Of a DNA stretch of 64,000 bases, positions 12,925 to 42,004 are shown piece by piece. The DNA lies in contig JBFLWF010000011.1 in the NCBI GenBank assembly GCA_040758355.1, positions 16,041 to 80,040 of the forward strand. Reading direction: 5' to 3'. Positions within the stretch are counted from its first letter, which is position 1. The number at the start of each line of letters is the position of its first letter. Under the pieces are notes generated by a model. It searched no databases, was not told the origin of the DNA, and was given only the letters and a program-made list of their open reading frames with translations. Source of the stretch: Nitrospirota bacterium (lineage in GTDB: Bacteria; Nitrospirota; Thermodesulfovibrionia; Thermodesulfovibrionales; Dissulfurispiraceae). A program made the translations under genes and the position numbers.

Positions 12925-12987
12925 AGCAAAACTCCAAAAAATGATTTAATATTATATTTTACTCCAGATTCTGCTTTATCAAGCAAT

Positions 12988-13023: not shown

Positions 13024-13040
13024 ATCGTATTTGCAGCGGA

Positions 13041-14294: not shown

Positions 14295-14296
14295 GA

Positions 14297-15567: not shown

Positions 15568-15610
15568 AATCCCTCCCCGGAAAACTGTATTGTATATTCC
15601 CTTTAGCCTG

Positions 15611-22853: not shown

Positions 22854-22854
22854 C

Positions 22855-24089: not shown

Positions 24090-24141
24090 CGTTCCACCTC
24101 CCCTATCAAATAGAGCCAGTTTAATTTACATCATAACTTCT

Positions 24142-24639: not shown

Positions 24640-24670
24640 GTTTCAAGTATACCAAAACTATATTGACTAT

Positions 24671-25576: not shown

Positions 25577-25634
25577 TCTTGCCTCCATTGAATTTTATTC
25601 GCACCTATGGCGTTCGGCATAGCTCATTTTTATT

Positions 25635-25750: not shown

Positions 25751-27088
25751 TTAAAGGAGCTTATATTTTACCATTCTTAATCTGAGCTGTCTCCTCGTAA
25801 TCCCGAGGCGGGCTGCTGCCTTTGTCTGGTTCCAGTTCTCTGCCTCAAGGGTCTTTAAAACTACTGCACGTTCGAGTTCATCGAGTTTGAGGCCTGACAG
25901 GTCGGCTATACCTTTTGAGACGGCATTTCCTGAACCTTTATTGATGATCTTATTCGGAAGGTCATCGAGGGCAATGGTCTCCTGTTTGGTCAATACAATT
26001 GCCCTCTCTATAATATTCTCGAGCTCCCTTATATTCCCTGGCCAGTCATAACTCAAAAGTGCGTCCATTGCCATCTGATCAATCCCCTTTATGAATTTCT
26101 GGTTCTCAAGGGCATATTTTTTTATAAAGTGGTCAGCGAGCAAGGGAATGTCCTCTTTTCGTTCCCTCAAAGGAGGCATATGTATGGATATTACATTAAG
26201 GCGGTAGTAAAGGTCCTCCCTGAACCCTCCTGTCTCGATCTCCTTTTCGAGATTTCTGTTTGTTGCTGCAATTATCCTGCAATCGGCTTTTATCGGCTTG
26301 TTCCCCCCTACCCTGTAGAATTCTTTTTCCTGTATAAACCTCAGTAGTTTCACCTGCATGGATAAGGGCATCTCTCCTATCTCATCAAGAAAAAGTGTAC
26401 CTCTGTTAACCATTTCTACCTTGCCCGCCTCTTTTGACACTGCACCGGTATATGCACCTGCCTCGTGTCCGAAAAGTTCATTCTCGATGAGATCCTTGGG
26501 TATTGCAGCACAGTTTATTGCCACGAAGGGGAATTCCCTTCTCTGTGATGCGCTATGAACGGCCTTTGCCACAAGCTCCTTGCCTGTCCCTGACTCTCCT
26601 GTTATGAGTATATTTGCACGGCTGCTGCTGACAACATCAATGGTAGATAAAACATCCTGAATTGCCCTGCTGTTGCCGATTATACCGTATTGTTCCTGTT
26701 GATACACTGCTTGACTTTTTACCGATACATGGCTGTGAATCAATGCATGTTTGATTATGGCAAGCATCTCGTCATGCTCTATGGGCTTTGTGAGATAATT
26801 GGCAGCGCCTATCTTCATTGCCTCCACTGCATTTTCTATGCTGCCATAGGCTGTGATCACTATGACAGGGAGTTCGGGATCCTTCTCCTTTACATGCCTT
26901 AAAAGGTCAAGCCCTGACCTGCCTGGAAGCCTCATATCCGTAATGACCAGATCATAGGGGTCAGCAAGTCTTGAAACGGCTTCCTCGTAACTCCTTGCTG
27001 TCTCAACATGAAAACCTTCCTGCTTCAGAAATTTATTGAGCACAAGGAGTATATTTCTCTCATCGTCCACTACCAGTATTCTTTCCAT
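25751..27088 (-). CDS. Sigma-54-dependent response regulator (NtrC/AtoC family)
   Basis: Receiver domain, GESGTGKE, ENELFGHEAGAYTGA, WPGNIREL, Fis-type HTH. Confidence 0.95.
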   Translation of the reverse strand: MERILVVDDERNILLVLNKFLKQEGFHVETARSYEEAVSRLADPYDLVITDMRLPGRSGLDLLRHVKEKDPELPVIVITAYGSIENAVEAMKIGAANYLTKPIEHDEMLAIIKHALIHSHVSVKSQAVYQQEQYGIIGNSRAIQDVLSTIDVVSSSRANILITGESGTGKELVAKAVHSASQRREFPFVAINCAAIPKDLIENELFGHEAGAYTGAVSKEAGKVEMVNRGTLFLDEIGEMPLSMQVKLLRFIQEKEFYRVGGNKPIKADCRIIAATNRNLEKEIETGGFREDLYYRLNVISIHMPPLRERKEDIPLLADHFIKKYALENQKFIKGIDQMAMDALLSYDWPGNIRELENIIERAIVLTKQETIALDDLPNKIINKGSGNAVSKGIADLSGLKLDELERAVVLKTLEAENWNQTKAAARLGITRRQLRLRMVKYKLL

Positions 27089-27104
27089 GGCTATCCTGCC
27101 GAGG

Positions 27105-27131
27105 CGTAAGGGGGACTTCGTCCCCCTTACG
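27105..27131. repeat. Perfect intergenic hairpin (REP-like)
   Basis: CGTAAGGGGGAC-TTC-GTCCCCCTTACG between the kinase and regulator genes. Confidence 0.6.
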
Positions 27132-27139
27132 AAAACCCC

Positions 27140-28645
27140 CTATTTTGTTCCTGTCACCCCCTCCATAGTTAAAGATTCTAATTTAAGCTCGCCTGTGTCC
27201 ACGATATGTCTATCTCCCATCGGGAGTTTTATAACAAAGTGCGCTCCCTTTCCGGATGGAAGCAATTTTATATCACCATGATGGGCTAATATTATCTTAT
27301 AAACAGTGGCAAGGCCGAGGCCGGTGCCGTCAGCCCTTGTTGTAAAGAATGGTTGGAAGATCTTCTGGGCGATTTCCTTCGGCACGCCGGGACCCGTGTC
27401 CTTTACATAAATCTCCAGCCACTCATCCGATACCTTATATTCCACTGTTATGGCCCCATCCTTTTTCATTGCCTGGATTGCGTTCATAAGGAGGTTTATA
27501 AACACCTGCTTCAGGAGGGTGGGATCACCCGTAACCCTTGGAATTTTGTCCCCCTCCTTTTTAATCACTCTAACATTAGACTCTTCGAGATCAGGCTCGA
27601 GCAAATCAATAACCCTGTCTACAACATCGCCCACATCACAATGCACAAAGGCGGGCGAAGGCATCTTTGCAAACCTGAAAAATTCATCAGCCATCATGGT
27701 CATTCCGATGGTTTCGTCTTTGATAATAGCTATATACTCACGCACTTCTGCTATATCGCCGGATCGCTCGATTCCCGATATCGCGCCACGAATGGAATAC
27801 AGGCTGTTCCTTAATTCATGGGCTATCTGTGCTGACATTTCTCCTACTGTTGCCATACATGTAAGCATCTCCCTTTCCTCCGACATCCTCTTGAATTCAG
27901 ATAGATGCCTCTTGAGATTCTCTATCATATTATAAAAGGCGTGCCTCAACTGGACTGTCTCATCCCTGTCCGACGGATCATACAGTTTGATATGCCTTAA
28001 CCCAATCTCTTTTTCAAATGCCTCTATCTCCTTTGAAAGAGATGTTATTGGCCGCGTCATTATCATTGAAACAATAAATGAACCGCCGATGCCGACAGCA
28101 AATATGATCAATGAAAGATACATGAGCTGAATTATTGTCTTTTTGAATTCCTTATTGAGAGCTGCATCTTCAGCCTCGAGGTCAAAGTCAATCTCAAGGC
28201 CGCCAAGGATATCCCTTTCTATCTCGATAGGCAGAAATATCTGGCCTTCGGGGTTCTCATTCCGCTTGCCATTGATAAAATCATCCAGCTTTTTCGATAT
28301 GGCATCGTTCAGATGACCTAATCTTTTTAAGCTGTCGGAGGCTATGACTATTCCCTGTTTATCTATAATATTTATGCCTTTTGCCTGGCCTGAAGATTTC
28401 AACTGCCGGATCTGCTCCATCAAAAAGCCAAAATCTTGTGATATCATGGCATCAGATGCATTGATTGCCAGTTTTTCAGCAACGCTTTTGTGGAACTGCT
28501 GCCGCTGGATATTGAGATTCCTTTTGGATGAAGAAAGAACCACTATGCTCACAGAGACATAGATTATCACTATCAACAGCATCACATAGAGGATGCCCTT
28601 GCTTTTTATGCTCGTCCGCTTATTTAGATCCTTCAAAGCCTTCAT
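27140..28645 (-). CDS. NtrB-type membrane sensor histidine kinase
   Basis: Two transmembrane helices, [26 protein letters not shown]. Confidence 0.92.
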
Positions 28646-28664
28646 ATTTACAATAAAATTCCGA

Positions 28665-30320
28665 TCATTCTTCCATTATCCTGAATGCCTTTATTCCTGT
28701 CTGTTTCTGCAGTTCCATGGTCTGCCTTTTAGAGTACTGGACGAGGTGTCTTTTTGCATTATCTACAAACCTCCTGTCCATGTCCTTTCTTGCACTCAAG
28801 ACCCATCCATGAAGGGGGGGAGTTTTAGCAAGTATCACGATGCGGCTCGTGTCTATATCATCCTGCATGGACTTCAAAGACGATAGGCTCACAAACCCTG
28901 CATCAACCGAGCCTCTATAGACCTGCATAATTACATTCTCATAAGTCTTCAGCTCCACAAACTTTATTCCATTCATTGGCACTCCGCTGGCAGTTAATAA
29001 ATTCTTCTGAGAAATATAGCCTCCGTCTGAATGCAGGGATGTTATACCAATCCTCCTGTCAGCCAGATCTTTAATTGTCCTGATATTACTTACCGAGTGG
29101 GCAATAATCACTCCAACATTATCCTCGGAATTGCCTGCCTCGACAATGGCAGCAATCCCTTTTGCTCTGCCCGTCTTTTTCGTTTCCATGTATAGATGGT
29201 AATTCTGGAGGAAGATATCACCCTCCCCTTTATTCATTATTTTTATAAATGCCTCCGCATTCTCGGGGATAATAAGCTGAAACTTACTTCCTGTCATCCT
29301 CGCAAGATACTCTATCAAGGGGTTTAGCTGTATAAAGACATCGGGACCAAAGGAGACAGGCTCTACAACGAACCTTTTACCGCCATGCTGTCTCAAGATT
29401 ATGCCCTCCTTTTCTCCAGGGACGCTGCTCATCAAAACCCTCACTATGTCATAGTCGCTGTCCTTTGTCTCTGAAAAGCCATCAACTCCTGCTCCAATAC
29501 TGCCGATGATATCCTTTTTGTTTTTCAGGCTGTTTACAGAAAGCATTGCATTTTTGAGATCATGTATAAGGCCTTTGCCAATGGCTGCCCTTGCAACAAA
29601 GAGATACTGGGGAATGGAATAGGAATACTTCACTATTCTGAGACCGCTGTTCAAGTATGGTTTTGCTGTCATCTCAGGCACCCCGGTGGCATCGAACATC
29701 CGTGCCATTACAGCAGTCAGGGAACTCTCATCCGAACCTAACTTCACAACCTCGAGAAAATCTTTATCAGAAATCCCTACCCTCTGAAGCATTATTTTTG
29801 GCAAAAGGCCTGAACCAGGGCATTTATATCTGCCATATGCAAGTGTCTTATCTAAGAGATCAGCAGTCTTTTTAACAGAAGAATCATCACGAACAACCAG
29901 AACGCTTCTTTCCTCTGTAGAACCATTTATGCTGAGCTTTACAAGGGGCACAATTGATGTTTTGCTGTATGCCTCGCAGTAAATGGTTGGGCAGAGGAAT
30001 GCTATATCCGCATCGCCCTTTTCAAGATGTTTAGGCATATCAGCCGTCTCCCTCGCCACCCTGATTTTGATGGATATGTTCAGCTTATCCTCAAGGTATC
30101 TCTTCAATGGAAGGAAATTTTTATACATGGTTGATGGGGACTGAAGGGGGATGAGCATCATGGTTATCTGCTGTCTGGAGAAGGCAGGGGAACTGCAAAA
30201 GAGGATAAGGGCAGTTACCAAGATAATCCTTTTTAAAACAGTGGAATGGAAGAAAAACTTCATATTTAAATTATATAAAAATGGTGTTCTGGATGTAAAC
30301 AAATACATCCAGAACACCAA
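28665..30320 (-). CDS. Tandem-domain PhnD-like periplasmic binding protein
   Basis: Two phosphonate-binding-type repeats (PL..YL, TADL/IKDL, V..G..DAG) and a signal peptide; the true start may be 30263. Confidence 0.8.
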   Translation of the reverse strand: MVFWMYLFTSRTPFLYNLNMKFFFHSTVLKRIILVTALILFCSSPAFSRQQITMMLIPLQSPSTMYKNFLPLKRYLEDKLNISIKIRVARETADMPKHLEKGDADIAFLCPTIYCEAYSKTSIVPLVKLSINGSTEERSVLVVRDDSSVKKTADLLDKTLAYGRYKCPGSGLLPKIMLQRVGISDKDFLEVVKLGSDESSLTAVMARMFDATGVPEMTAKPYLNSGLRIVKYSYSIPQYLFVARAAIGKGLIHDLKNAMLSVNSLKNKKDIIGSIGAGVDGFSETKDSDYDIVRVLMSSVPGEKEGIILRQHGGKRFVVEPVSFGPDVFIQLNPLIEYLARMTGSKFQLIIPENAEAFIKIMNKGEGDIFLQNYHLYMETKKTGRAKGIAAIVEAGNSEDNVGVIIAHSVSNIRTIKDLADRRIGITSLHSDGGYISQKNLLTASGVPMNGIKFVELKTYENVIMQVYRGSVDAGFVSLSSLKSMQDDIDTSRIVILAKTPPLHGWVLSARKDMDRRFVDNAKRHLVQYSKRQTMELQKQTGIKAFRIMEE

Positions 30321-30329
30321 GGGGAGGGG

Positions 30330-31991
30330 TCAGATTACCATCTTTGGCCTTTCAGACTTTATCTTTATGGTCTTCTTCTTCTTGATGTAATTGATGACAA
30401 CATCATAAACCGGTGGGCCCGGCTGTTCTTCCATTGACGCCCATCCTGCCATTGTGTATTCCTTATCGGGATGGACATCTTTCCCGCGAACCTTCAAATC
30501 CTGTATCCTGTTACCCATCTTCTCATTCACCTTAATAACAAAACTCATGCCCGCTGTCCTGACCATATCTCCACCCTGCTGTTTATAAGGGTCGTGATGG
30601 AAGATGTTATCAGCTATGTCTTCCATCACCTCTTTCAGGAAGCTGCCTTTCATCTTTGTCTTGTATGTGTTTGCATAGGTGATGGCTGTCTGGGAATAAA
30701 CATCGTCCGCTGTAATCGGGCCCGGAAGAATTGTCCTTCCCCACCTGAACCCGGCGGAAAGGGCAAACTCTGCATCATAATGGTCGATCATTGCCTCACA
30801 GATGAGGTCATCAAAGGTTCCGTCCAGATTGCCCCTGCGGTAAAGGATATCCTCTGTATGTCCCAATACCTCATCAAGCTTTGCCTTGTGGGGCTTTCTT
30901 ATGTCCTCTACGAGCTTTGACATTTCAGGATCCGGGTCTATCATCTCGGACATCACGGGTATGAGTCTGAAGGAGTAATCAACCATCCTTTTATTCTTCA
31001 CTTCGATGTCCATCCTTGAGAGGAACTTCCCATAACAACCCGTGTTTACCACAAGGGTCTTGCCAACAACTATTGGCTTGGGTATTCCATCATGGGTATG
31101 TCCGCCAAAGATTACATCGATGCCCTTAACCCTGCTCGCCATCTTTTTGTCCACATCACAGCCATTATGGGAAAGAACGATAACAAGGTCAACATTCTTT
31201 GCCCTCACCTCATCCACGATCTTCTGCATGTTTTCGTCTTTGATCCCAAATGACCAATTTGGTATGAATCTCCTCGGATTGGCTATTGGCGTATAGGGAA
31301 ATGCCTGGCCTATTACTGCAACAGCAAGACCATTGACTGTTTTTATCTCGTAGGGCTTGAATATGGGGTCTCCCCATGTAGATTCGTGGACATTCTGGGC
31401 AACAAATGGGAAGTTCATCATCTTTATTAGCTCGAGAACGCGCTCCTCAGGATAGGTGAATTCCCAGTGGCCAGTCATGACATCACAGCCAAAAAGATTC
31501 AGAACCCGCACCATGTCTTCTCCGCGGCTCCAGAGGCTCGTTGCAGATCCCTGAAGTGTATCACCGCCATCTATACACAGCACCTTTCCGTGCCTTTCAG
31601 CCTTTACCCTTTTAATCATGGTGGCAATATGGGCCACACCACCCACCTTTCCGTACTTCTTTGCGAGGGCTGAGAAGTTGTCACTGGTGTACGCATAAGC
31701 CTCAAGGGTATCAGGCTTATAGCCATAATATTTCAGAAGCTCCCTACCGGTAAGGTGTGGCGGCTTGCCCTTATTTTCACCCACTCCTATATTTGTATCA
31801 GGCTCCCTGTAATACATGGGGACAAGCTGTGCATGTATGTCTGTGGTGTGTAATATCGTGATATTCCCCTTTGCATCAAATTTGAACAGATTTTCCGGCC
31901 TTAAACTCTTTGCGAGGGCTGCCGGTGATACAGCAGCGGTTCCTGCAGTGAGTGCTGCCATCCAGAGAAATTCTCTTCGTGTAATAGCCAT
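30330..31991 (-). CDS. soxB: Thiosulfohydrolase SoxB
   Basis: Tat TRREFL; HTTDIHAQL.P.YYREP, DGGDTLQGS, GHWEFT, GGHTHD, LYRRGN, PYKQQGGDMVR. Confidence 0.96.
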   Translation of the reverse strand: MAITRREFLWMAALTAGTAAVSPAALAKSLRPENLFKFDAKGNITILHTTDIHAQLVPMYYREPDTNIGVGENKGKPPHLTGRELLKYYGYKPDTLEAYAYTSDNFSALAKKYGKVGGVAHIATMIKRVKAERHGKVLCIDGGDTLQGSATSLWSRGEDMVRVLNLFGCDVMTGHWEFTYPEERVLELIKMMNFPFVAQNVHESTWGDPIFKPYEIKTVNGLAVAVIGQAFPYTPIANPRRFIPNWSFGIKDENMQKIVDEVRAKNVDLVIVLSHNGCDVDKKMASRVKGIDVIFGGHTHDGIPKPIVVGKTLVVNTGCYGKFLSRMDIEVKNKRMVDYSFRLIPVMSEMIDPDPEMSKLVEDIRKPHKAKLDEVLGHTEDILYRRGNLDGTFDDLICEAMIDHYDAEFALSAGFRWGRTILPGPITADDVYSQTAITYANTYKTKMKGSFLKEVMEDIADNIFHHDPYKQQGGDMVRTAGMSFVIKVNEKMGNRIQDLKVRGKDVHPDKEYTMAGWASMEEQPGPPVYDVVINYIKKKKTIKIKSERPKMVI

Positions 31992-32000
31992 TTTCTCCTC

Positions 32001-32714
32001 CTATGAATGAACCTTTGCTCCCATGCAAATTTGATCTTCTGCGTCATCTTCACTATCTTCAAATTTAAAATTCGTGACTTTTTGAGGCGATACATCGAGG
32101 TATCTGCATTCCGCATTAATCCAGCATCTCAGAAACTGGCTGATGGAACTGTAAAATAAACTTCCCTCTGATTTTAGGGCATCTGAGAATGCATCGACCC
32201 ATCTGCCAAGGTGGTCCTGTAAGAATTTCCTCTCAACAGATATGCAGATCTCGACATTATTGCCCTCACCTTTAGATGCTGCCTCTGCTTCCTTAAGTGT
32301 GACAAGGTGCATAAACTCAAGCTCTGCTGCTATATGGTCAGGCCTCTCATTTGTGAAATTCATTCCGAATGCCTTGTAAAACCCTGCAATGTCAGCCATT
32401 TCTTCTGTCGTATAAACAGACAGCCTGGACCTGTAGTACTCGTTCTCGTAAGGAGGACATCCGCTTTTAAGGGTCAAAAATCTAATGTGTTCATCCGCCA
32501 TTTTATCCACATCAAAGGTTTCTGCCTCTTTAAGGTCTTTTAAAGACGCCTCTATCTCTGTCTTTAAGGGATATCTTTCAATCGCCTCCTTTATCTCGTT
32601 TACGAATTCACCGCTCCTTAAAAATCCTCCAAACTCTTCATCCGGATAAAAAAAGCAGTAACTGAGAAGCCTGTACGTCTTTGACCTTTGAAAGGCTACA
32701 TTTGCATTGCTCAT
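32001..32714 (-). CDS. TorD/NarJ/DdhD-type molybdoenzyme maturation chaperone
   Basis: PPYE..Y, ADIAGFYKAFG, ERPDHIAAELEFM, FLQDHLGRW. Confidence 0.9.
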   Translation of the reverse strand: MSNANVAFQRSKTYRLLSYCFFYPDEEFGGFLRSGEFVNEIKEAIERYPLKTEIEASLKDLKEAETFDVDKMADEHIRFLTLKSGCPPYENEYYRSRLSVYTTEEMADIAGFYKAFGMNFTNERPDHIAAELEFMHLVTLKEAEAASKGEGNNVEICISVERKFLQDHLGRWVDAFSDALKSEGSLFYSSISQFLRCWINAECRYLDVSPQKVTNFKFEDSEDDAEDQICMGAKVHS

Positions 32715-32746
32715 TTTTTACTCCTTCTGTTTTTTATCTGCATCCT

Positions 32747-33880
32747 CTATGTTATGTTGTGGCGGTATACCTGGAGTTTTTTGTCATAAAAAGGTCTGAT
32801 ATACGCAGGCTCTTTTATAGGCACCTTCACAATCTCTTTGCCCTTGACATCGTAACCAGAGGCACTGCCCTTTGAGACCTTGAACTTCGCAGGCCAGAAA
32901 TCAGTGGAACCAAATAGCATCAGCACGCCGAGTAATGTCTCATCGGTGTGTGCATTCCTATAAGTCTTGATCGCATCTTCAACTCCAGGCCCGAACGTCT
33001 GCCTCAAGAAGGGAGGAGGCACATGGATGGGCGGGATGTAGTATATATTGGGCTCCGTCCCAAACTGCGGGAAAAGCGGTAATGCCACCTTTTTGATATG
33101 GACAAGGTAGTCAATAGGGTTTGATGGATCAGCCTTTTCAGGGGTATGTATCCAGCCGTTCAGCCTCGTTCTGCCTATGCATGTCCTCATACACTGTGTC
33201 TGTTCCCCTTGTTCAACAAGCGGGTAACAACCTATACATTTTTCCGATTTCCTCGTTGTACTATTGAAAAAAACCTTTTTATATGGGCATGCTCGGACAC
33301 AGTCCCTGTACCCCTTACACCTCTTCTGGTCGACAAGGACAATGCCATCCTCGGCACGTTTATATATCGCCTTCCTCGAACAGGCAGAAATACAGGCAGG
33401 GTATGTACAGTGGTTACACATCCTTGGCAGATAGAAATGCCATACCCTGTGGGGCATTGTTATGTAATCGCCCCCATCTATCGAGCCGTGAGCGTCGTCT
33501 TCGCCTATATTTGGATGCGCCCAATCCATCTCCTCAGGCCAATAACCCTGCGTGACCTGTCCCTTTGGGGCTGCCTCGAATATGGTTTTGCCTTTATAGA
33601 CATTCCCTTCCCACTTCTGAGGCCCGAGGAGTCCGAGTATCTTCACATCCCATCCAAGTGGATAAAAACCATACGGCTTTGACTCCACATTGTTCCAGAA
33701 CATGTACTCCTGACCCTCTCCTGTTGTCCATGTATGTTTGCATGCCATAGTACAAGTCTGACAGGCTATGCATTTGTTGATGTCAAAGACCGCTGCAAAC
33801 TGTTTTTCGGGCCTCACACCCTCATAGGGGTAAAACATTTCTCTTTGAATCTGCCAGTTCTTGACTTTAATCTCAGCCAT
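32747..33880 (-). CDS. NxrB/NarH-like Fe-S beta subunit
   Basis: FDINKCIACQTCTMACK, YMFWNNVE.KPYG.YP, CNHCTYPAC, CKGYRDC, KSEKCIGC, PQFGTEPN. Confidence 0.92.
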   Translation of the reverse strand: MAEIKVKNWQIQREMFYPYEGVRPEKQFAAVFDINKCIACQTCTMACKHTWTTGEGQEYMFWNNVESKPYGFYPLGWDVKILGLLGPQKWEGNVYKGKTIFEAAPKGQVTQGYWPEEMDWAHPNIGEDDAHGSIDGGDYITMPHRVWHFYLPRMCNHCTYPACISACSRKAIYKRAEDGIVLVDQKRCKGYRDCVRACPYKKVFFNSTTRKSEKCIGCYPLVEQGEQTQCMRTCIGRTRLNGWIHTPEKADPSNPIDYLVHIKKVALPLFPQFGTEPNIYYIPPIHVPPPFLRQTFGPGVEDAIKTYRNAHTDETLLGVLMLFGSTDFWPAKFKVSKGSASGYDVKGKEIVKVPIKEPAYIRPFYDKKLQVYRHNIT

Positions 33881-33907
33881 TATATCCTCCAAGATTTTGC
33901 ATTCCTA

Positions 33908-36900
33908 TTAAACGATAAAACCGCCGTTCAGGTATTTCTTCATGTCATCATTTTCATAAGTAGGTCTGTAGCCTAATGATGCAGGCCTCCAGAGACCCTT
34001 GCCTCCAATTCCACCATCTTCAGCCTTTGCCACCTTGACATATGCCTCCCTCGGTGCCCCAACAGGACAGTGGATGTCTGGCGCAAACCCCTTTCCAACT
34101 AACTGCCCAAAGGTCTCCTTCCTTATAAGGGTATCTGTCATCAATGTAGGACCGAGCCATGCCCTTGTGCAACTCTGGTGGCCGCCATAGCGGAACATGG
34201 ATTGATATGTTGTCTCGGGGTTTTTTGCGAGTTTGTCAGGATTGGCCTCGTGAGCAGCGACAGACCCATGGCTTGACTGATACATATTGAACCACATGAG
34301 CAGCACCCCCCTCGGTATCCCCGGATAATACCTTGCACGGCACATCATGCGGCTCACTTTATAATCCTCATCGGTCTTCTTCCATCCTCTATAAGGCCTA
34401 TCTTCAGGGTCGGCATCTATCCAGACGTAATCGCCATCATTGATGCCAAGCTCCTTGGCATCCTTTGGATTTATATTCACATATGCCTCGCCCACCCATG
34501 GCATCCTCTTGTCAGATCTCTTCAGATCTCCAAAAGGCCCGAAGAATACGGATACGACATCGATGTCAACGGGTGTTGTGTGGGCACCGTGCCTGTATTT
34601 TGGCGTGATGAACTGGAATTTTAGACCATCCTTTTCCCCCGGATGCTTCGTCTTCTTGAGATCCTTCCATGACTTTACAATGTTTCTTACCTGCCTGACC
34701 TCGACAGAGAGATCGTCCCTCTTTAGACCATATGCCTCTGGAGGGGTTGGCTTAAGGGTATCTAATGGCTTGCTCACAACCACATTGGGTTCATAAAATG
34801 TCGCATCTATGGGCTCACGATAAACAGGGAGGTTCTCGCCATGCTCGATAAACTCTGGCTCTTCCCTGTAGAATTCAAGCCTTCCTGTCTTTGTATACCA
34901 GGGCTTGCTTTCATGATACTGTTCCCATCCAGGTACCTTCGGATATGTCCTGAAAAGGGTAAGCACCGGTATGCCGTCCTTTGCCCTCTTTTCCATTTCC
35001 TCTATCTTGTATCCCTTGAGTGTTGTGCTTTCGTTTATTATCCTCTGGAGATAGACCTCCACCTTTTTGTCATGAACGAACTTCCAGTAATCCTCGAACC
35101 TCTTATCTCCTGTGAGTTTTGCCAGTTTCTTTGCAACACCTGCATAGGTCTCGATATCGCTTACAGTATCATGTATCCTCTTAAGCGGGGTCCTTGGATA
35201 TATATGAACAAAGGGATTTGTGACCGATGCAGTCATATCGGGGTATTTGAACTCTGCCCATGAATCAACGCCATATACAACGTCGGCATATTCGCATGAA
35301 AGGGTCCACCACCATTCATTGACGATTATACCCTCCATCTTTGGAAGTGTATTATGTATCAAGTCATAGAACCACTTTGCATTTCCGAGAAGGGAGTTGC
35401 TGTTGGCAAACCAGAGGAGCTTTGTGGGTGTTGGTGTATGTGTCTTCCCTGTAAAGAGTTTATTCCCAATCCTGAGCGGCCTGTCGCCGTAATTGTAATA
35501 GTGGGCTGATTCAAATTTGAAATAATATTTCAGTTTTGGAGCCTTTTCAGACGAAAGCTCGGGATTGAACGGGTCCTCCATGACGTACTGGGGCGTACCA
35601 TTGAATATGGCAATCCTGTAATTCCCTGCATAACTTCCAGGGCTTCCGCCGAGATTGCCAATATTTTTGGTCATTGCAGCCACAAGGAATATCCCCCTGT
35701 CTTTAAGCCCTGCATTGAAGAACTGATTTGGCCCCATGCCAACAGCAAAGAGCGTTTTGCCTTTGTTCTTCGCTATCTGCTCTGCGAGGTTTATGATGGC
35801 CTCCTTTGGAGCGCCTGTTATTTCCGAGACGTTCTCCGGTGTAAACTCCTCAAGATATTCTTTGATAACATCAAGTACAGTCCTCACCTCGATCTCTTTG
35901 CCATCAATACCCTTGACCTTAAACCTTCCCGTAAGGGCAATATCTTTCCGCAACCCTCTAAACTTCTTCCCCACATGGTCCCTTGTGATAACTGCCGGCG
36001 TCTTGGCCTTTTTATCCCAGACCACAAAGTCGCCCCATTCATTCCTCATTGTTTCGGGTATATACTGCTCTTTATGCACAGGCATGGGCGGAGGCGTTTC
36101 ACCTTCCTTTAAGACTTTTACATAATTATTTAGCGGGGAAGGAGTATAACTACTGATTATGTCAGATGCCCTTAAATACTGCAGGTTGTCGCTCCTGAGT
36201 AAAACGGGCAGGTCTGTGTATTCCTTGAGATAGCCGGGATCATAGAGGTTTTTCTTTATGAGCAAATGCGCAACGCCGAGGGCAAGTGCCTGGTCTGTGC
36301 CCGGCCTGATGACTACGACCTCATCGGACTTATTGGCAGTAGATTGATACTCTATCGTTATATTTATGACCTTTGAACCTTTCAGCCTTGCCTCTGTGAG
36401 CCAGTGGGCATCGGGCATCTTTGTGGATATCCAGTTCAACCCCCAGATGGTAATGAGGTTAGCCTGTTCAGTAGCATGGAGCTCAAAGTCAACAGTCTGC
36501 TGTCCGGTAACCATTGGATGACCTGGAGGAAGGTCTGTATGCCAACTGTAGTTATCCCAGTAACGGCCGCCGATTGCCTTCTCATGGTTGGTTTTCCTTA
36601 TATGGTTGTCGAGGAGGGCGAGCATATTGGAAAACCTTCCCAATCCAGCAACCCTCGTTATCCCGAGGAAATGCATGCCCCCCCTGTGTTTGAGGGTCAA
36701 TGTCCCCGCGCCCTTCATCCACTCTATCATTGATGGGTCATAGCCCTGCGCCTTCAGATACTTTGCACCCTGTTCGCCACTGTAAGTCTGTGCAATATTC
36801 ATATAGGCCTTTGCCGCTATCTCATTCACTTCGTCGTGAGATAACTTAAGCCATTTATCCTTCCCCCTCTGGAAGTACTTTTCTGGCGGCCTTCCTGTCT

Positions 36901-37351
36901 CCGGATCCCTCGGGAAATCGGCCTTGACCCATTCGTAAAAACCCTTTCTGACCATGGCGCCCTTGACCCTCCTGTCTCCGTAGAACTTCCTCACGAGGGC
37001 GAGCCCCTTCTGGCAGCATCTGGGCTCCCATCTGTGGGAAGGCCTGTTGCCGTACACATCCGTTGCCTTTCCATAACCATAGGTGGGCATAATCCTGACA
37101 ACAACGCCGTTTCTTACATAAGCCCTTAAAAGGCAGTTGTGAGTATCATTGGGCGCACATGTAAAGACAAATGTGTCATCGTATTTGAATTTATCCCTGT
37201 ACAGTTTTTCCCAGTCCCTGTGTGGGTATCCACCGAGGGGGTTGTCAGTATCTACCGGCTGTAGAAATGCAAGCCTTGGCGAACTGACAGCTAATCCAGC
37301 CGCACCTGCAAGAGACCATTTCAGAAAATCCCTTCTGCTAAATCCTTTCAC
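33908..37351 (-). CDS. Tat-exported type II DMSO-reductase-family molybdoenzyme, periplasmic NXR alpha-like
   Basis: SRRDFLK; FS0 motif CAPNDTHNC...CQKG; Mo-ligand region [20 protein letters not shown]; 1147 aa. Confidence 0.92.
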
Positions 37352-37378
37352 ACGATCCTCCTCATAATCGATGCCTTT

Positions 37379-38212
37379 TTAAAACCTGAAACCAGGAACC
37401 TGGATTGGAAGCCCGTTGGCCTGATATGTTAAATAGAACTCAAGGTTGCGAATGTCCTCGCTCTCGTATTCCGGCAGCTTTTCCACCCTCATGTTCCCAA
37501 TACAATCTTTAATGATCCTTCTCTGAATGGTGCCCGTAGAACCCCATGCCATCCTGTAAGTTGGCCAGTGGTCTGCATGGCCTCTATTTCTCGAAAGAAT
37601 ATTGGCCCTTGTCTTACGGCCTGCATACTTTATATGACATTGGGCGCAATTCCAGCTCCACTCCCCCCACTTCGTATAGTACATCTTCTTTCCGGCCTCG
37701 TAGAATGGCTTCGCAGGGCCGTCTATGTTTATCTTGATCGGCATACCGTTGGAAAGGGACTTCACAAACAATTCAACTGCAACTATATCGGGGGTGTCAT
37801 ACTTCCAGGGCTTGGCACCCATCTGTCCTTCACGGCACCTGTTGATCTGTACCGGAAGGGTGAGTATGCCTTTAATGCTTGCATCGTATTTTGGATAGGT
37901 GGTTGCAGCACCTTTAAGCTTTTCCCCATTCTGTCCGTGGCAACTGGCACATGACTTCCCTTTGCTTCCATCAGCCTTCTGGAATAGGGCATTTCCATCG
38001 TCAAGCAATATCTCGGCCGGATTGCCCTCTTCTGCCATCTTCTTTGTAGCCTCACCGTAAAACTCATTGTATCTCTTCTCATACTCTTCAGGCGAGATCT
38101 CAGGAGTATATTCCACAATCTCTCCAGCAGTAGAGTCTTGCAATGTTACAACAGGTATAACACCCACCAGAGATAACAGCAATATCAGACCACCTAAAAC
38201 TCTTTTATTCAT
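37379..38212 (-). CDS. soxA: Diheme SoxA
   Basis: CASCH, TYPKY, INRCRE, CAQCH, WPTYR, QRR..DC, LEFYL..ANG. Confidence 0.92.
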   Translation of the reverse strand: MNKRVLGGLILLLSLVGVIPVVTLQDSTAGEIVEYTPEISPEEYEKRYNEFYGEATKKMAEEGNPAEILLDDGNALFQKADGSKGKSCASCHGQNGEKLKGAATTYPKYDASIKGILTLPVQINRCREGQMGAKPWKYDTPDIVAVELFVKSLSNGMPIKINIDGPAKPFYEAGKKMYYTKWGEWSWNCAQCHIKYAGRKTRANILSRNRGHADHWPTYRMAWGSTGTIQRRIIKDCIGNMRVEKLPEYESEDIRNLEFYLTYQANGLPIQVPGFRF

Positions 38213-38233
38213 TTTCCACCTCTCCTTATACCA

Positions 38234-38563
38234 TTATTGCGGATTAACCTGGACAGTATCTTCATAAGTACCACCCTTGTTGTCCTTGTATACTATCTTA
38301 AGGGGTGCGGCCTTATCAGCCTTAACATAAAAGGTTATAAATGGGTCCGCACTGACAGCCGTTGTCCACTCCATGCTGCTTATGAGATCGTTTCCATAAT
38401 AAACTTTTACATCGTTAATGTAGTGAGCTGGGATCGGCTTTCCTGCCTTATCCTTCCTCAACCCTGTTTCCATTGGGTGCATTACCAACGCCTTTACAGA
38501 GACCACTTCATCTTTTTTTATGGTCTGTGGCAACTTTATCCTTATTTTCCCGACTTCTGCCAT
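38234..38563 (-). CDS. soxZ: Sulfur carrier SoxZ
   Basis: HPMETGLRKDKAGKPIPAHYI, SADP. Confidence 0.96.
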   Translation of the reverse strand: MAEVGKIRIKLPQTIKKDEVVSVKALVMHPMETGLRKDKAGKPIPAHYINDVKVYYGNDLISSMEWTTAVSADPFITFYVKADKAAPLKIVYKDNKGGTYEDTVQVNPQ

Positions 38564-38612
38564 TGTATTTTCCTCCTTTTGAAATTTAAAGTTTAGAATT
38601 CTTTAAAACAGG

Positions 38613-39107
38613 CTATCCACCGCAGCCGCCGATGGTGACCTTAACCGGCTTGGACCCCTGATAAAGCTTACCTGTATTGGTCTCAACCACGGCACGGACA
38701 TCGGAGGTCTGCCTCATCTTGATCCTCAGTGCAAGTTCTGCCTTGCCATTGGCAGGAGTAAGTTCCATACTTGCTGTAAAGGGCCTCAGGTTCCCCTCGG
38801 CAAAAACATAGATTTTCTTAACATAATTGTCAGGTGTCATTGGAAGATCCGAAGTGACCGTTATCGGGACAACAGCTCCATTCTCTGCAATTATAGGCAC
38901 CTTTAGATCCACATGTCCTGTCTCTATCTTACGGTCTCCAAAGAACTTCTTCAACACATCCTTGATGTCCTCCTTTTCCTCTGCTGCCAGTGCAGGTTTA
39001 AGAAGGCCCGGCACAGTGCCTGCCATAAAAAAGGCTGCACATGCAACACCCGTTGCCTTAATAAACTCTCTCCTCGAAAGTCCAGTACTTTCCTTTGAGT
39101 CTTTCAT
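38613..39107 (-). CDS. soxY: Sulfur carrier SoxY
   Basis: Tat SRREFIK; IAENGAVVP; C-terminal VKVTIGGCGG. Confidence 0.97.
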   Translation of the reverse strand: MKDSKESTGLSRREFIKATGVACAAFFMAGTVPGLLKPALAAEEKEDIKDVLKKFFGDRKIETGHVDLKVPIIAENGAVVPITVTSDLPMTPDNYVKKIYVFAEGNLRPFTASMELTPANGKAELALRIKMRQTSDVRAVVETNTGKLYQGSKPVKVTIGGCGG

Positions 39108-39123
39108 ACATTCCTCCTGTCTT

Positions 39124-39561
39124 TTATTTCTCTTTTAGCGTGTATAGATATTCGACGATATCATCAATTCGCTGTTCGATCAGCTTCTTTTTCTGATCCT
39201 CGGGCAGATTCTCTTCTCCCTTGAAAATCAGGAGCTTGCTGGCCCCATAAGACGGCATAAAGGGGTCTGCTTTGGTTTTCTTCGCATCGTATATCCACTG
39301 CCTTAATTTCTCCCTATCTTTCGGTGTATCGGCATAGTCTTCCATAATTTCAGCAAAGTCCGGGGAAATGTCACTGGGAAACTCGATACCTTTAAAGTAA
39401 TGACATGCCACACAGTTAGCAACCGGTCTGCCGTGAAAAAGCTTTTTACCATTCTTTGCATCCCCTGCCCTAACAGCTATCGGGAAAGCAACAAATACAG
39501 AGAGTAACATCACGACCGCAATCATAGTGCCGAACCTTGACCACACCTTGCTTTTTTGCAT
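39124..39561 (-). CDS. soxX: SoxX-like monoheme cytochrome c
   Basis: GD..NGKKLF, ANCVACH, LRQWIYD, MP axial Met; directly upstream of soxY. Confidence 0.8.
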   Translation of the reverse strand: MQKSKVWSRFGTMIAVVMLLSVFVAFPIAVRAGDAKNGKKLFHGRPVANCVACHYFKGIEFPSDISPDFAEIMEDYADTPKDREKLRQWIYDAKKTKADPFMPSYGASKLLIFKGEENLPEDQKKKLIEQRIDDIVEYLYTLKEK

Positions 39562-39587
39562 ACAAAATCCTCCTTTTATCATTCTCA

Positions 39588-40085
39588 TCATTCAACCTTT
39601 ATGTAGGCAAAGCCTTCATCCTGAAGCTCTACAACCCTTACCTGACCCGAATCCGTGAGTTTGCAGAATGGCTTGAGTTTGGTCTTGTCTATCTTCATTC
39701 TCTTCAGGGTTATATCGCACTGCTCAACTTTCACTCCGTAGCCGTCCACAAGGCTTGCAAGCATCTCATCTATTGATTTTTGCAGCTTTTCGTCTATCTG
39801 CTTTTCTGCGAAATTTGTCCCTGACTTATCCTTCAGCAGAAACTGCACGCATGCCCCGTTGGCAACTACCCTTACATCATAAGAAACATTTTTGGTTGTG
39901 TAGTAATTGACGAGATTGTAGACATTGCGCAGCATGCCGTCAAACCTCTTGGCATCTCCAAAGTCGCAGTGATAAACAGCCTTTCTCTCTTTTTCTTTGT
40001 CAGATGCTTTGCCTATGGATGGCATTAAAAGAACCGCCATGGCAAGACCTAAGATCGAGATTTTTAGAAAACTTCCCCATTTCAT
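39588..40085 (-). CDS. Exported DsrE-family protein
   Basis: AVYH, RVVANG, EQC, SG..RVVELQDEGFAYIK. Confidence 0.82.
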   Translation of the reverse strand: MKWGSFLKISILGLAMAVLLMPSIGKASDKEKERKAVYHCDFGDAKRFDGMLRNVYNLVNYYTTKNVSYDVRVVANGACVQFLLKDKSGTNFAEKQIDEKLQKSIDEMLASLVDGYGVKVEQCDITLKRMKIDKTKLKPFCKLTDSGQVRVVELQDEGFAYIKVE

Positions 40086-40134
40086 ATTCTCCCCCTTCCG
40101 CCCCGAAGCATTCAGGGCAACTTTTTGGAATTTA

Positions 40135-40524
40135 CTAACACCCTTTATTTCTTATCCCATCTACATAATTACAGAGCAGGTCCTTAAAGTCCTCCTTCGT
40201 TACAGCACCCGGAACCCTTAATAACTCCTCACCATTGGCATTTAAAAATATAACTGTTGGGGTGCCTATTATCCTGTACTTTTTTGCAAGGTCTTTTTCA
40301 GGCATGCCCATTTTGCGCATCTTTCTTCCCCCATGAACATCTACCCTTATAATATCTGCATTTCTCAGAAGGATACTTTTTATCGACGAGTCATTCATAA
40401 TACTATCCATGCGCTCACACCACCTGCACCCTTCCTCATAAAAATACAACACCTTGATATCGGATGCTGCTGCGACAGATGAAAGCAAGAAAAAAACTGA
40501 AACTATAAGTATTAGCTGTTTCAT
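40135..40524 (-). CDS. Exported thioredoxin-like protein (SoxW/SoxS-like)
   Basis: CRWC, GTPT, signal peptide. Confidence 0.82.
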   Translation of the reverse strand: MKQLILIVSVFFLLSSVAAASDIKVLYFYEEGCRWCERMDSIMNDSSIKSILLRNADIIRVDVHGGRKMRKMGMPEKDLAKKYRIIGTPTVIFLNANGEELLRVPGAVTKEDFKDLLCNYVDGIRNKGC

Positions 40525-40539
40525 TACACTTTATAGTTT

Positions 40540-40555
40540 AGCAAGATATGTGCCA
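40540..40555 (-). promoter_or_regulatory. Sigma-54 promoter of the sox/NXR-like operon
   Basis: Minus strand reads TGGCACATATCTTGCT, matching the TGGCAC-N5-TTGC consensus. Confidence 0.88.
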
Positions 40556-40586
40556 TTATTTTTCCTTTATATTTATCAGGATACCC

Positions 40587-40634
40587 TGTCCTTTCCGGTA
40601 CAGTTCCAAACCATCCAATGTTCAATTCTGAACA
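40587..40634. promoter_or_regulatory. Paired putative enhancer-binding-protein sites
   Basis: TGTCC-tttccg-GTACA (40587-40602) and TGTTC-aattct-GAACA (40619-40634). Confidence 0.7.
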
Positions 40635-40660
40635 TAAACGGCGAAGCCGTCTTGCCTCCT

Positions 40661-40735
40661 AAAAAAATTTGCGGCCATCCATTAAAGAATGGCCGCCAGC
40701 ACGGGTGTTTCTATAATAATGGAGGGTTTATGCAT
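40661..40735 (-). ncRNA. Candidate sigma-54-dependent small RNA (or leaderless 17-aa peptide)
   Basis: Own promoter with predicted +1 near 40735; 3' hairpin GCGGCCAT/ATGGCCGC followed by AAATTTTTTT. Confidence 0.45.
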
Positions 40736-40745
40736 CTTAAACTTT

Positions 40746-40762
40746 AGCAAATTTTTTGCCAG
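40746..40762 (-). promoter_or_regulatory. Sigma-54 promoter (upstream copy)
   Basis: Minus strand reads CTGGCAAAAAATTTGCT (GG-N10-GC). Confidence 0.75.
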
Positions 40763-40814
40763 ACTAATTAACCTTATAATTTCAAATAATAATATGATTT
40801 CAAGGCAGGATATC

Positions 40815-40862
40815 TGTTCAATAAAGTACAGATCAAAACCCAATTATGTCCAAAAATGAACA
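40815..40862. promoter_or_regulatory. Paired putative enhancer-binding-protein sites
   Basis: TGTTC-aataaa-GTACA (40815-40830) and TGTCC-aaaaat-GAACA (40847-40862). Confidence 0.7.
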
Positions 40863-40942
40863 TATGGGCACAAACTGCGGCGGGCATGCAAGTTCTGTCT
40901 CCAGTGCTGACCCGTAAGAAAATTTTTATCCTGTCAGGCCTT

Positions 40943-42004
40943 TTAGTCTGGATTTTCGGTACTGGATGACTCATCAAGGTCTATTATCTTTTTTCCTTTT
41001 ACATAATCCTTGGTCTTGTAATCTGTTATGGTTAACATCTTCCTGATAATGTTGTTCATCCGGTCACACTGGTTGTTGATAATGCTCATCTCTTCCTCTG
41101 TTAGCGGTTCTTGATGCTCAAACTTCTCTTTAAACAGACCTATAAGGTTATGGACAATTGTCATTGGCTGTCTCATCTCATGGGCTGTTGCCCCTGCCAG
41201 CTCGATGATGGCCGCAAGCTTTTCCCTCTCTATGTCCTTTTCTATGGCGGAACTGAGTCTTTTAGATACTATAACTGTTATCGCGGCAACAAAAACAATG
41301 CTGAGCAAACCTATAGCCAATAAGGAGATAATAGTTTTACGGAGTTCTGCTGAACGTATGTAATCATACCTTTCCATAGGGATGCTTATACTGATGCCGC
41401 CCTTGATATCTCCATAACTATATCCGTGTTTTGCATGGCACTTGAGACATGGTTCCTCTATTTTGAGAGGCGCAATGTATTTAAAGACCCTGCTGCCGTC
41501 TTGTTCCGATATTGCCGCAGTTTCCGCAATTGCACCCTTCTCAAACTCTTTAAGCGCATTCCTTTCCCATGCATCAGGAATATTATATGGATTCACGGGC
41601 TTGAGGCTTATAATACGGAATTTATAACCCTGTCGCTGCATTGTTATTTCTGATAGCTGCCTCGTCATGTATGCCGGATTAATCTTCGTATAGCGTCTGC
41701 CGTCAACCGAAACAATATCACGGCGGGGGTCTTCCAGATATGGATTTGGCGGGGTATCTGGCGAGATCTCCACATAAACACCTCCGTGCTGTGCATTCCA
41801 GAGGCGGGCAACCATTATCTGGTCAAAGAACGCCCCTGCAGTCTCTTTCAATTCATTTATCTGTTCTTTTTTTCTTTCGCTTTGCACCCACAGTACCAAT
41901 GAAAAAAAGAGGATGCTCAGTATAATCACAAAGGGGACTAAAAACGTTACAGTCAGCCTACAAGGACTTTCCGGTTTGTTTATTTCTGAAAAGAACTTTC
42001 TCAC
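40943..42004 (-). CDS. DUF3365 heme-c sensor fused to a HisKA domain without HATPase
   Basis: WNAQHGGVYV, NPAYMTRQ, SLKPVNP.N.PD.WE, CLKCH, ATAHEMRQP; the protein ends about 80 aa after the His. Confidence 0.85.
   Translation of the reverse strand: MRKFFSEINKPESPCRLTVTFLVPFVIILSILFFSLVLWVQSERKKEQINELKETAGAFFDQIMVARLWNAQHGGVYVEISPDTPPNPYLEDPRRDIVSVDGRRYTKINPAYMTRQLSEITMQRQGYKFRIISLKPVNPYNIPDAWERNALKEFEKGAIAETAAISEQDGSRVFKYIAPLKIEEPCLKCHAKHGYSYGDIKGGISISIPMERYDYIRSAELRKTIISLLAIGLLSIVFVAAITVIVSKRLSSAIEKDIEREKLAAIIELAGATAHEMRQPMTIVHNLIGLFKEKFEHQEPLTEEEMSIINNQCDRMNNIIRKMLTITDYKTKDYVKGKKIIDLDESSSTENPD

Follow-up and report, generated by a model that had tools for sequence, protein, structure and literature searches.

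A gamma-less NXR/NAR-type molybdoenzyme lies within a soxCD-less sox operon of a Nitrospirota bacterium and may serve as an electron sink for SoxAX

The window analysed here is a 64,000-nucleotide stretch of a Nitrospirota bacterium genome (GCA_040758355.1, contig JBFLWF010000011.1), and its minus strand carries a sox operon whose gene order and identities, read off the sequence in an earlier note, were borne out by profile matches. The operon opens with a periplasmic thioredoxin-fold protein (40135..40524; PF13098) and a DsrE-like protein (39588..40085; PF02635). Both are ancestral operon members: the former opens most related sox loci, and 11 of the 25 other sox loci of the class carry the latter. 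These genes are followed by soxX, encoding a monohaem cytochrome c with a CxxCH motif plus Met (39124..39591, likely start 39561), soxY with its GGCGG carrier arm (38613..39107; TIGR04488, above cut-off), soxZ (38234..38563; TIGR04490, above cut-off), and the dihaem soxA (37379..38212; TIGR04484). SoxX scores below the cut-off of TIGR04485 (52 bits, cut-off 61), and solved SoxX chains do match it. Aligned to 1H31 and 2C1D, SoxA retains the catalytic Cys238 and the active-site arginines. Three inserted genes come next: a Tat-exported Mo-alpha subunit of 1147 aa from type II of the DMSO-reductase family, periplasmic NXR/NAR type (33908..37351), an Fe-S beta subunit identified by profile matches (32747..33892, likely start 33880), and a NarJ/TorD-type chaperone (32001..32714; PF02613). 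The soxB thiosulfohydrolase gene (30330..31991; TIGR04486, 826 bits, cut-off 550) closes the run. The core of a truncated Sox system is therefore all present with its catalytic features (the SoxY GGCGG arm, the Cys-ligated haem of SoxA, and SoxB). All gaps in the operon measure 49 bp or less, as expected from the tight packing (≤50 bp) described earlier. Rfam gave zero matches within the window.

The insert shares its promoter and terminator pattern with the sox genes. Two sigma-54 consensus sites lie upstream of the operon on the minus strand, which upholds the sigma-54 promoter proposed before: a proximal site about 30 bp before trx (40540..40555) and a distal site (40746..40761), the latter with a counterpart in the same-genus genome G001. 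They are the only such sites in the window, where 0.53 would be expected by chance, and a site about 30 bp ahead of trx recurs in 9 of 22 related loci with a strict pattern and in 13 of 22 with a relaxed one. An intrinsic-terminator-like hairpin of 16 pairs plus a T run (30282..30319, minus strand) closes the unit after soxB, and the minus-strand hairpins that a scan listed inside the insert have 5-7 pairs only. Genes for a PhnD-type binding protein, a histidine kinase, and a sigma-54 activator (25751..30320, minus strand) follow, as they do after soxB in sox loci of the class. PhnD-like domains elsewhere sense thiosulfate or tetrathionate (PMC5408782), and these genes probably encode a thiosulfate-sensing regulator of the operon.

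The alpha subunit matches PF00384 and PF01568, not the SoxC-type sulfite-oxidase-family profiles PF00174 and TIGR04555. Its best solved relative is Kuenenia NXR-A (7B04; E 3.5e-285); bit scores are 952 for NXR-A, 180 for PcrA (PcrA-type chains 4YDD and 5E7O), and 132 for EbdA. The FS0 motif noted earlier is present as C65-x3-D69-x3-C73. C65, N68, D69, C73, and D273, residues of FS0 and the Mo site, line up with Kuenenia NXR-A, for which C67, N70, D71, and D275 are named (PMC8387239), and all 119 of the homologs compared share them. Alpha thus has the complete feature set of periplasmic NXR/NAR (Tat signal, 3Cys/1Asp FS0, Asp Mo ligand, and conserved Asn), and the four-cluster Fe-S beta and dedicated chaperone that this family requires are both present. 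The cluster cysteines of beta are invariant across 35 aligned betas. At two sites where the other betas do not vary, beta carries a change (P168S and I238T), the former beside a cysteine that we take to be an FS4 ligand; we give them little weight, because a number of this size is within the normal spread of 32 betas. In a tree of 74 alpha sequences, which includes Acetothermia, Magnetominusculus, and Magnetoovum and no Nitrotoga, Hydrogenobacter, or Kuenenia sequence, alpha nests in a clade of donor-type cassettes from Thermodesulfovibrionia. It is 83-84% identical to donor-type copies outside sox loci and 69% identical to an Acetothermia NxrA/NarG (P0058).

The donor cassette encodes, in order, USP, a radical SAM protein, a bd-like protein, two cytochromes c, the chaperone, alpha, beta, gamma, and an ORF. 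The haem-b gamma subunit follows beta in all 28 related loci that hold beta, yet it is absent from this locus, an absence that the earlier note did not report. The chaperone, upstream of alpha in the donor cassette, here stands behind beta, in the slot of gamma. Neither a gamma (NxrC/EbdC-like) nor a membrane anchor lies beside alpha-beta; the two subunits belong to the periplasmic NXR/NAR family, but their complex departs from the canonical ABC trimer. The bd-like membrane protein and cytochromes of the donor gave no tblastn match anywhere in the genome. Since gamma, the bd-like protein, and the donor cytochromes are all missing, the enzyme would need a new electron partner.

The layout is not an assembly artefact. 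Run X2, from a study other than that of the possible source run, covers 28500-41500 in a single contig of 21,905 bp (214 differences, 4 gaps), which rules out an assembly chimera. Run X5 bridges the soxA/alpha junction, and runs X3 and X8 gave short pieces only. The very small run X5 also shows a loose end inside beta. Outside this lineage, close homologs of alpha lack sox linkage. Genome G001 has a collinear sox locus in which soxA directly adjoins soxB with no insert, and the insert was found in 0 of 32 other Nitrospirota sox loci. Across 390 genomes of the class, alpha occurs in 31, soxB in 26, and both in 2, with linkage in this genome only. No sox gene lies beside alpha in 19 genome, 11 metagenome, and 18 class-genome loci, some of which overlap and some of which end at contig edges. 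Widespread sox-NXR linkage is thereby ruled out, and the check set beforehand, whether close alpha homologs are sox-linked, speaks against a general rule. Nor does the group that is sister by SoxX (class 9FT-COMBO-42-15 type) share the insert: soxA adjoins soxB in 3 of 3 of its loci, and a search run without a positive control did not find alpha in any of the family's 6 genomes (0 of 6). A blastn search of the insert against the genome gave no mobile-element or repeat traces. The insertion is lineage-restricted, a single recent recruitment rather than a pathway variant in wide use. Sox clusters are catalogued in Supplementary Data 1 of PMC13500833, and this genome might be among them; in the titles and abstract openings searched, which cover openly accessible papers, this layout is not described.

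An insertion confined to one lineage, with the normal partners gone, could be a neutral passenger: a crippled cassette inserted by chance, useless without gamma, and on its way to being lost. A related short contig that seems to join the chaperone to a decayed soxB, a linkage drawn solely from the equal length of two contigs, points the same way. We nevertheless regard this as highly improbable. The three reading frames and every cofactor ligand are intact, and 0 of 18 relative-rate tests on alpha, beta, and chaperone found a significantly faster rate against donor copies. In addition, the repositioned chaperone has tight spacing and ribosome-binding sites, and the layout is kept across strains from separate studies.

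Two functions had been put forward for the enzyme in the earlier note: (a) a non-homologous replacement of SoxCD or a sulfite-oxidising enzyme; and (b) a periplasmic nitrate reductase coupled to thiosulfate oxidation. Reading (b) fits best, while (a) found no support. In (a), the enzyme would oxidise the sulfane carried by SoxY, or would be a sulfite oxidase of the periplasm, with electrons leaving via beta. The attractions of this reading are the position within a soxCD-less operon, the loss of gamma, which would free an outlet for a new acceptor, and the resemblance of sulfite and nitrite as small oxyanions. Judged from alignments, however, the active site of the Mo subunit is still of the Kuenenia nitrate/nitrite kind and its evolutionary rate is normal, which makes a SoxCD replacement improbable. 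We looked for active-site remodelling of alpha and saw no sign of it: against 119 homologs, no private change falls at a catalytic or gate position. Among the columns conserved in at least 95% of 120 sequences, it deviates at 2, both of which also vary in non-sox relatives; its private residues number 10, and seven close relatives have 4-29 each. SoxY, which would present the substrate, is not accelerated (13 private residues versus 13). In Kuenenia NXR, which reduces nitrate besides oxidising nitrite, a narrow tunnel of 25 Å leads to the active site (PMC8387239). Such a tunnel would suit a peptide-borne substrate poorly. The close relatives of alpha, as seen above, are not sox-linked.

The genome, in 93 contigs, is 99.2% complete. 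The earlier claim that the window holds no soxCD can be extended to all of it, since soxC did not turn up: TIGR04555 had 0 matches, and PF00174 matched one 37-residue piece on another contig. A search for dsr did succeed, recovering dsrAB, dsrC, dsrMKJOP, and a dsrD-like ORF whose DsrD label comes from reading the sequence by eye. The presence of Dsr, which might take up the sulfane sulfur, speaks against a SoxCD replacement, as do the 32 sibling operons, which have no substitute. Sox systems without soxCD are ordinary in the class and in Nitrospirota (PMC11033732; PMC13500833). The genome already encodes Nap, which sits with the quinol dehydrogenase NapGH, together with cNor and NosZ; NirS gave no convincing match. 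Action on another small oxyanion (chlorate or selenate), or nitrite oxidation, has a sister clade in its favour that mixes nitrite oxidisers and nitrate reducers inseparable by sequence (PMC6050957, PMC10839748). We hold it to be barely credible, because the host looks anaerobic, an oxygen-reducing haem-copper oxidase that could receive nitrite electrons is missing from it, and the PcrA and EbdA scores fall far under that of NXR-A.

SoxX, by contrast with the inserted proteins, is fast-evolving in this lineage. It has 36 private residues versus 6 (p=2.8e-6) and an end branch of 0.33 versus 0.009-0.05, and of 91 columns on which six congener-type SoxX fully agree, it departs at 26; the loop ahead of the axial haem Met is remodelled. 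SoxA is mildly accelerated (21 versus 9 private residues, end branch 0.10 versus 0.018), an effect that is not significant once corrected for ten tests. Private residues are balanced in SoxB, SoxY, DsrE, trx, and the regulators, and SoxB evolves at a normal rate. The pairwise dN/dS of soxX is, however, as low as 0.19. A SoxX tree places the protein beside the SoxX of another class (90/86, unstarred), although the data do not reject placing it as sister to G001 (p-AU 0.20). A structure model of SoxX (mean pLDDT 70.6) was uninformative. Synonymous sites are skewed in soxX (7 versus 2), soxZ (10 versus 5), and soxA (14 versus 5), so part of the SoxAX signal may be recombination.

This skew also fits regulatory capture only, in which a nitrate reductase came under thiosulfate control and is fed in trans, the SoxAX changes being recombination or drift. 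Candidate feeders do exist. First, the nosZ locus of the genome holds a Rieske/cytochrome b/multihaem module, and this module recurs (Rieske/cytochrome b/hexahaem, 56-82% identical) beside a different alpha-beta-gamma in three related loci (L040, L041, and L085). Second, an orphan EbdC-like protein of the EB_dh family, encoded on contig C7, did not turn up in 5 of 5 relatives searched. That protein, however, is just 17-24% identical to true gammas and sits among sensor genes. Furthermore, the clean loss of gamma and the move of the chaperone coincide with the remodelling of SoxX at conserved columns, and identity to G001 at the four-fold sites of soxX is 56% (n=27), close to the 62-66% seen for most genes of the operon. 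We therefore rate regulatory capture alone as rather unlikely.

On balance, sequence comparisons make it moderately probable that a periplasmic nitrate reductase was recruited as an electron sink for SoxAX, and the most likely purpose of the insertion would be to pass thiosulfate electrons straight to nitrate. An ordinary soxCD-less Sox operon of the Thermodesulfovibrionales has recently gained alpha, beta, and chaperone, whose source was a cassette of periplasmic NXR/NAR type within the class; gamma, both cytochromes, and the bd-like membrane module were not carried over. Under thiosulfate-dependent sigma-54 control, SoxAX would couple thiosulfate onto SoxY and release two fairly high-potential electrons. 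SoxX, directly or via a small cytochrome c, could hand these to beta at its end cluster, with alpha then reducing nitrate to nitrite. SoxB would free sulfate, the leftover sulfane sulfur might enter the Dsr system or storage, and nitrite could pass to NrfA-type or octahaem reductases. The potential of menaquinone is too low to accept electrons from thiosulfate coupling. This coupling is a high-potential reaction (tetrathionate couple, +198 mV; PMC9562282), and the nitrate couple lies at +420 mV (PMC8387239). The electron-sink reading is also favoured by the lack of an oxygen-reducing haem-copper oxidase and of a convincing NirS, and by a Nap that is paired with a quinol dehydrogenase. Little energy would be conserved at the SoxAX-to-nitrate step; the benefit may be that thiosulfate activation is kept going when nitrate is the sole oxidant. 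Against recruitment as an electron sink stand several points: relatives run the same operon without the enzyme; Nap, cNor, and NosZ are already present; beta shows no overall acceleration; the two trans partners described above exist; and the SoxAX signal is weakened by the synonymous skew, the low dN/dS of soxX, the correction for SoxA, and the place of SoxX in its tree. A narrower version, in which SoxAX took over the role of gamma, a remodelled SoxX docks on beta, and a soluble quinone-free thiosulfate:nitrate oxidoreductase has recently arisen, is in our view less likely than not.

Nitrate has been named as a candidate oxidant for the early Sox system, with no direct mechanism given (PMC13500833). 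For the question of what oxidises SoxAX in anaerobes with truncated Sox, the locus offers a concrete, testable candidate: a nitrate reductase without its own electron input, behind a sox promoter, with the Sox outlet changing alongside. If this is correct, a type II molybdoenzyme can trade its gamma for an unrelated pathway cytochrome, and the insert-free congener G001 is a natural matched control. Because one lineage of groundwater and biofilm bacteria is known so far, we regard the locus as an evolutionary case study, not a new global pathway.

Compared with known systems, the locus resembles the truncated Sox (SoxXYZAB) of Nitrospirota, Nitrospinota, and green and purple sulfur bacteria in its core genes, the lack of soxCD, and the presence of Dsr, and it shares the trx-(dsrE)-X-Y-Z-A-B-sensor order with its relatives. 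It differs in that a three-gene molybdoenzyme cassette parts soxA from soxB, SoxX is remodelled, and Dsr is the dsrD-containing type rather than the classical reverse Dsr. Periplasmic NXR/NAR (Kuenenia NXR-ABC, 7B04) is matched in Tat-exported alpha, FS0, Asp Mo ligand, Asn, four-cluster beta, and chaperone, but here the enzyme lacks the haem-b gamma and the membrane module and sits in a sox operon; by similarity, alpha may belong to the sister clade that holds Ca. Nitrotoga NXR together with Hydrogenobacter thermophilus NAR. The donor cassettes of Thermodesulfovibrionia are 66-84% (alpha), 71-80% (beta), and 34-61% (chaperone) identical, although 7 of their 10 genes are missing here and the chaperone has moved behind beta. 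SoxCD sulfane dehydrogenase is likewise a molybdoenzyme encoded in a sox operon but differs in fold family and cofactor type; this genome has no SoxC homolog, and no adaptation to the SoxY arm is seen. PcrAB, with PcrC and PcrD, is a soluble periplasmic type II alpha-beta enzyme with a chaperone that lacks a haem-b gamma and takes its electrons from a c-type cytochrome of its own. The sox-inserted alpha-beta would resemble it in how it works, whereas kinship is distant (180 versus 952 bits for NXR-A), and its donor is a quinol-linked cytochrome, where the donor proposed here is SoxAX.

Gene calls and family scans bore out the layout first read from the sequence: ten minus-strand genes (thioredoxin, dsrE-like, soxX, soxY, soxZ, soxA, Mo subunit alpha, beta, chaperone and soxB) with intergenic gaps of 49 bp or less. 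SoxY, SoxZ, SoxA and SoxB exceeded their NCBIfam cut-offs, and SoxX fell slightly below its own; the three inserted genes encode a Tat-exported molybdopterin subunit, an Fe-S subunit and a NarJ/TorD-type chaperone. Upstream, where a promoter had been proposed, lie two sigma-54 consensus sites; the window has no others (0.53 expected by chance), and the proximal one recurs at the same place in 9 (strict) or 13 (relaxed) of 22 related loci. The host genome has rpoN, recognized by the RpoN motif. A terminator-like hairpin of 16 pairs lies directly 3' of soxB. Judging from these signals, the insert and the sox genes are probably co-transcribed.

Parts of the stretch are present in 12 public runs from nine studies. 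Among four runs examined, X2 yielded a single 21,905-bp contig that spans the region in full, with 214 differences over 13 kb; X5 bridged the soxA/alpha junction, and X3 and X8 gave short pieces only. The junctions named in the earlier note are thus supported by contigs from these runs, and the soxA-alpha-beta-chaperone-soxB layout is real. One 21,318-bp JGI contig appears to hold a near-identical alpha, chaperone and SoxB, their shared contig being deduced from equal lengths. Two Logan entries (P0144 and P0137, both from 4167-bp contigs) comprise a chaperone 92.5% identical to the host's and a SoxB fragment that is decayed and apparently frameshifted; the equal lengths make linkage putative, hinting at a sister lineage that keeps the insert while soxB decays.

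To place the insertion, we compared sox loci. In G001, an insert-free congener, gene order is collinear on both sides and soxA lies 21 bp from soxB. Among 390 genomes of the class, 26 have soxB and 31 have alpha; both occur together only in the host and G055, where they sit on different contigs without linkage. Across all 25 other class soxB loci, soxA adjoins soxB in 20, soxXA is missing and soxZ adjoins soxB in five (L036, L062, L075, L077 and L089), and none contains a Mo enzyme. Sampling 401 genomes added seven loci of other Nitrospirota classes, all with soxA beside soxB. The soxA-nxrAB-soxB synteny therefore holds for the host and for none of these other loci; the insertion is recent and confined to one lineage. 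The soxXA-less operons consist of soxYZB with thioredoxin, DsrE-like and sensor-system genes, raising the question of how SoxY gets loaded. At L061 (G323:C25), the DsrE-like gene is tandemly duplicated within the sox operon.

The nearest alphas (66-84%) sit in a conserved cassette ordered USP, radical SAM, bd-like membrane protein, two cytochromes c, chaperone, alpha, beta, gamma and ORF. Gamma lies 3' of beta in 28 of 28 beta-holding related loci; L032 has a chaperone and truncated alpha with no beta. The host keeps only alpha, beta and the chaperone, the last relocated to gamma's slot, and its genome gave no match to the cassette's bd-like protein, USP or cytochromes. Its sole EB_dh-family protein (EbdC-like; G000:C7:79566-80492, L098) shares 17-24% identity with true gammas. 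It is an orphan among sensor genes, flanked by a Tll0287-like cytochrome and a sensor protein, and used as query it had no match in five relatives. The host enzyme differs from Kuenenia NXR, in which the gamma haem, next to FS4, ends the electron chain (excerpts of PMC8387239). Hence, the host alpha-beta requires a different electron partner. That it is fed in trans we consider rather unlikely. In a same-family genome, the NXR-like alpha (L040, G009:C48) is interrupted by an in-frame TAG, either a broken gene or read-through.

The Mo enzyme itself appears unchanged. Kuenenia NXR-A is the solved structure nearest to alpha (952 bits, versus 180 for PcrA-type, about 140 for NarG and 132 for EbdA), and C65, N68, D69, C73 and D273 match its FS0/Mo-site residues (excerpts of PMC8387239). 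All five are invariant in 119 homologs. Of the columns conserved to 95% or more, alpha deviates at only 2 (0-14 across the 120 sequences compared). It has 10 private residues, where seven close relatives have between 4 and 29. In 18 relative-rate tests against donor copies, alpha, beta and chaperone were never significantly faster. The unchanged site and normal rates argue against a new substrate and against decay. A sulfur substrate for alpha is accordingly improbable, and the SoxCD substitute first entertained for it is disfavored; a dead passenger is slightly less probable still, and other substrates are the least probable of all.

SoxAX, on the other hand, has changed. Set against G001 (outgroup G323), the host has 36 versus 6 private amino-acid changes in SoxX (p=2.8e-6), 21 versus 9 in SoxA (p=0.043) and 9 versus 3 in SoxZ, with no significant skew in the remaining seven genes. 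End branches are 0.33 versus 0.05 for SoxX, 0.10 versus 0.018 for SoxA and 0.036 versus 0.041 for SoxB. The protein collection, when searched, gave no SoxX cluster between 62% and the host lineage's own (11 matches among 25 candidates). Of 91 columns on which six congener-type proteins agree, SoxX departs at 26 (those proteins themselves at 0-5); five of the seven loop residues that precede the axial Met are among them. The SoxA catalytic cysteine and arginines (roles in excerpts of PMC4423706) are kept in our own residue mapping. Four-fold sites in soxX, soxZ and soxA are skewed in the same direction, soxX pairwise dN/dS is 0.19, 5 of the 26 changes match SoxX of another class, and the host SoxX groups with that same SoxX at 90/86, a sister position to G001 not being rejected; recombination or relaxed constraint could therefore be part of the signal.

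The host is a member of Thermodesulfovibrionales (Nitrospirota), as judged from a genome of its order whose alpha is identical to one named Ca. Magnetoovum. Its 2.77-Mb genome (99.2% complete) yielded no SoxC, extending the absence seen in the window, and does encode Dsr (dsrAB, dsrC, dsrMKJOP and a dsrD-like ORF), which the earlier note had proposed seeking. It also encodes a NapA-like protein (best match NapA, yet below cut-off) with NapG/H-like genes alongside, an NrfA-related multihaem protein, ArrA-, Ttr- and Phs-like enzymes, cNor and NosZ; it yielded neither an oxygen-reducing haem-copper oxidase nor a convincing NirS. Directly 5' of the Tat-type nosZ, G000:C4:29920-38899 (L100) encodes a flavo-Fe-S protein, Rieske, cytochrome b, hexahaem and two dihaem cytochromes. 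Its Rieske/cytochrome b/multihaem module also lies beside a different NXR-like alpha-beta-gamma in the relatives' loci L040, L041 and L085, a pattern that suggests a quinol-to-cytochrome unit with exchangeable terminal reductases. Within the window, 12385-16609 (multihaem cytochromes, Fe-S protein, NrfD-family membrane protein and TorD-like chaperone, with no adjoining molybdoenzyme catalytic subunit) may be an additional electron conduit. Beyond the sox regulators (21897-25588) come rhodanese, DUF302, thioredoxin, CcdA-like and alpha/beta-hydrolase genes; DUF302 is near sox in several relatives too, and the hydrolase is 3' of soxB in 9FT-COMBO-type loci. At 4092-8375, aroB and aroK are separated by an insertion of two neighboring ORFs of 455 and 952 aa, which read by eye like halves of a NACHT/STAND-type defense protein with an endonuclease-like C-terminus.

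We suggest, with slightly better than even confidence and from sequence comparison, that alpha-beta may be a periplasmic nitrate reductase serving as electron sink for the Sox system; direct SoxX-beta contact would be a more tentative proposal. Given the menaquinone potential, SoxAX electrons would not easily enter menaquinone and so would not reach Nap via NapGH. A soluble alpha-beta nitrate reductase taking SoxX electrons would avoid this obstacle. For each thiosulfate, SoxAX would release two electrons of rather high potential (related tetrathionate couple +198 mV, PMC9562282; nitrate/nitrite +420 mV, excerpts of PMC8387239). The unit would be switched on by the PhnD-type sensor system 3' of the operon, which is conserved along with it in related loci and is similar in domain type to known thiosulfate/tetrathionate sensors (excerpts of PMC5408782). 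The net reaction would be thiosulfate + nitrate -> sulfate + sulfane sulfur + nitrite, with energy conserved later by Dsr and by the reductases for nitrite, NO and N2O.

Of the two roles first proposed, the nitrate sink is thus most likely and the SoxCD substitute is not favored, in a layout confined to one lineage. Each module is of a known kind; joined in one unit that has lost gamma, they are apparently undescribed, no sox plus NXR/NAR unit without gamma having turned up in the titles, abstracts and excerpts searched. With the truncated Sox systems of Nitrospirota, the host operon shares the absence of soxCD already described for these lineages (excerpts of PMC11033732 and PMC13500833), and it differs from them by its inserted Mo enzyme.
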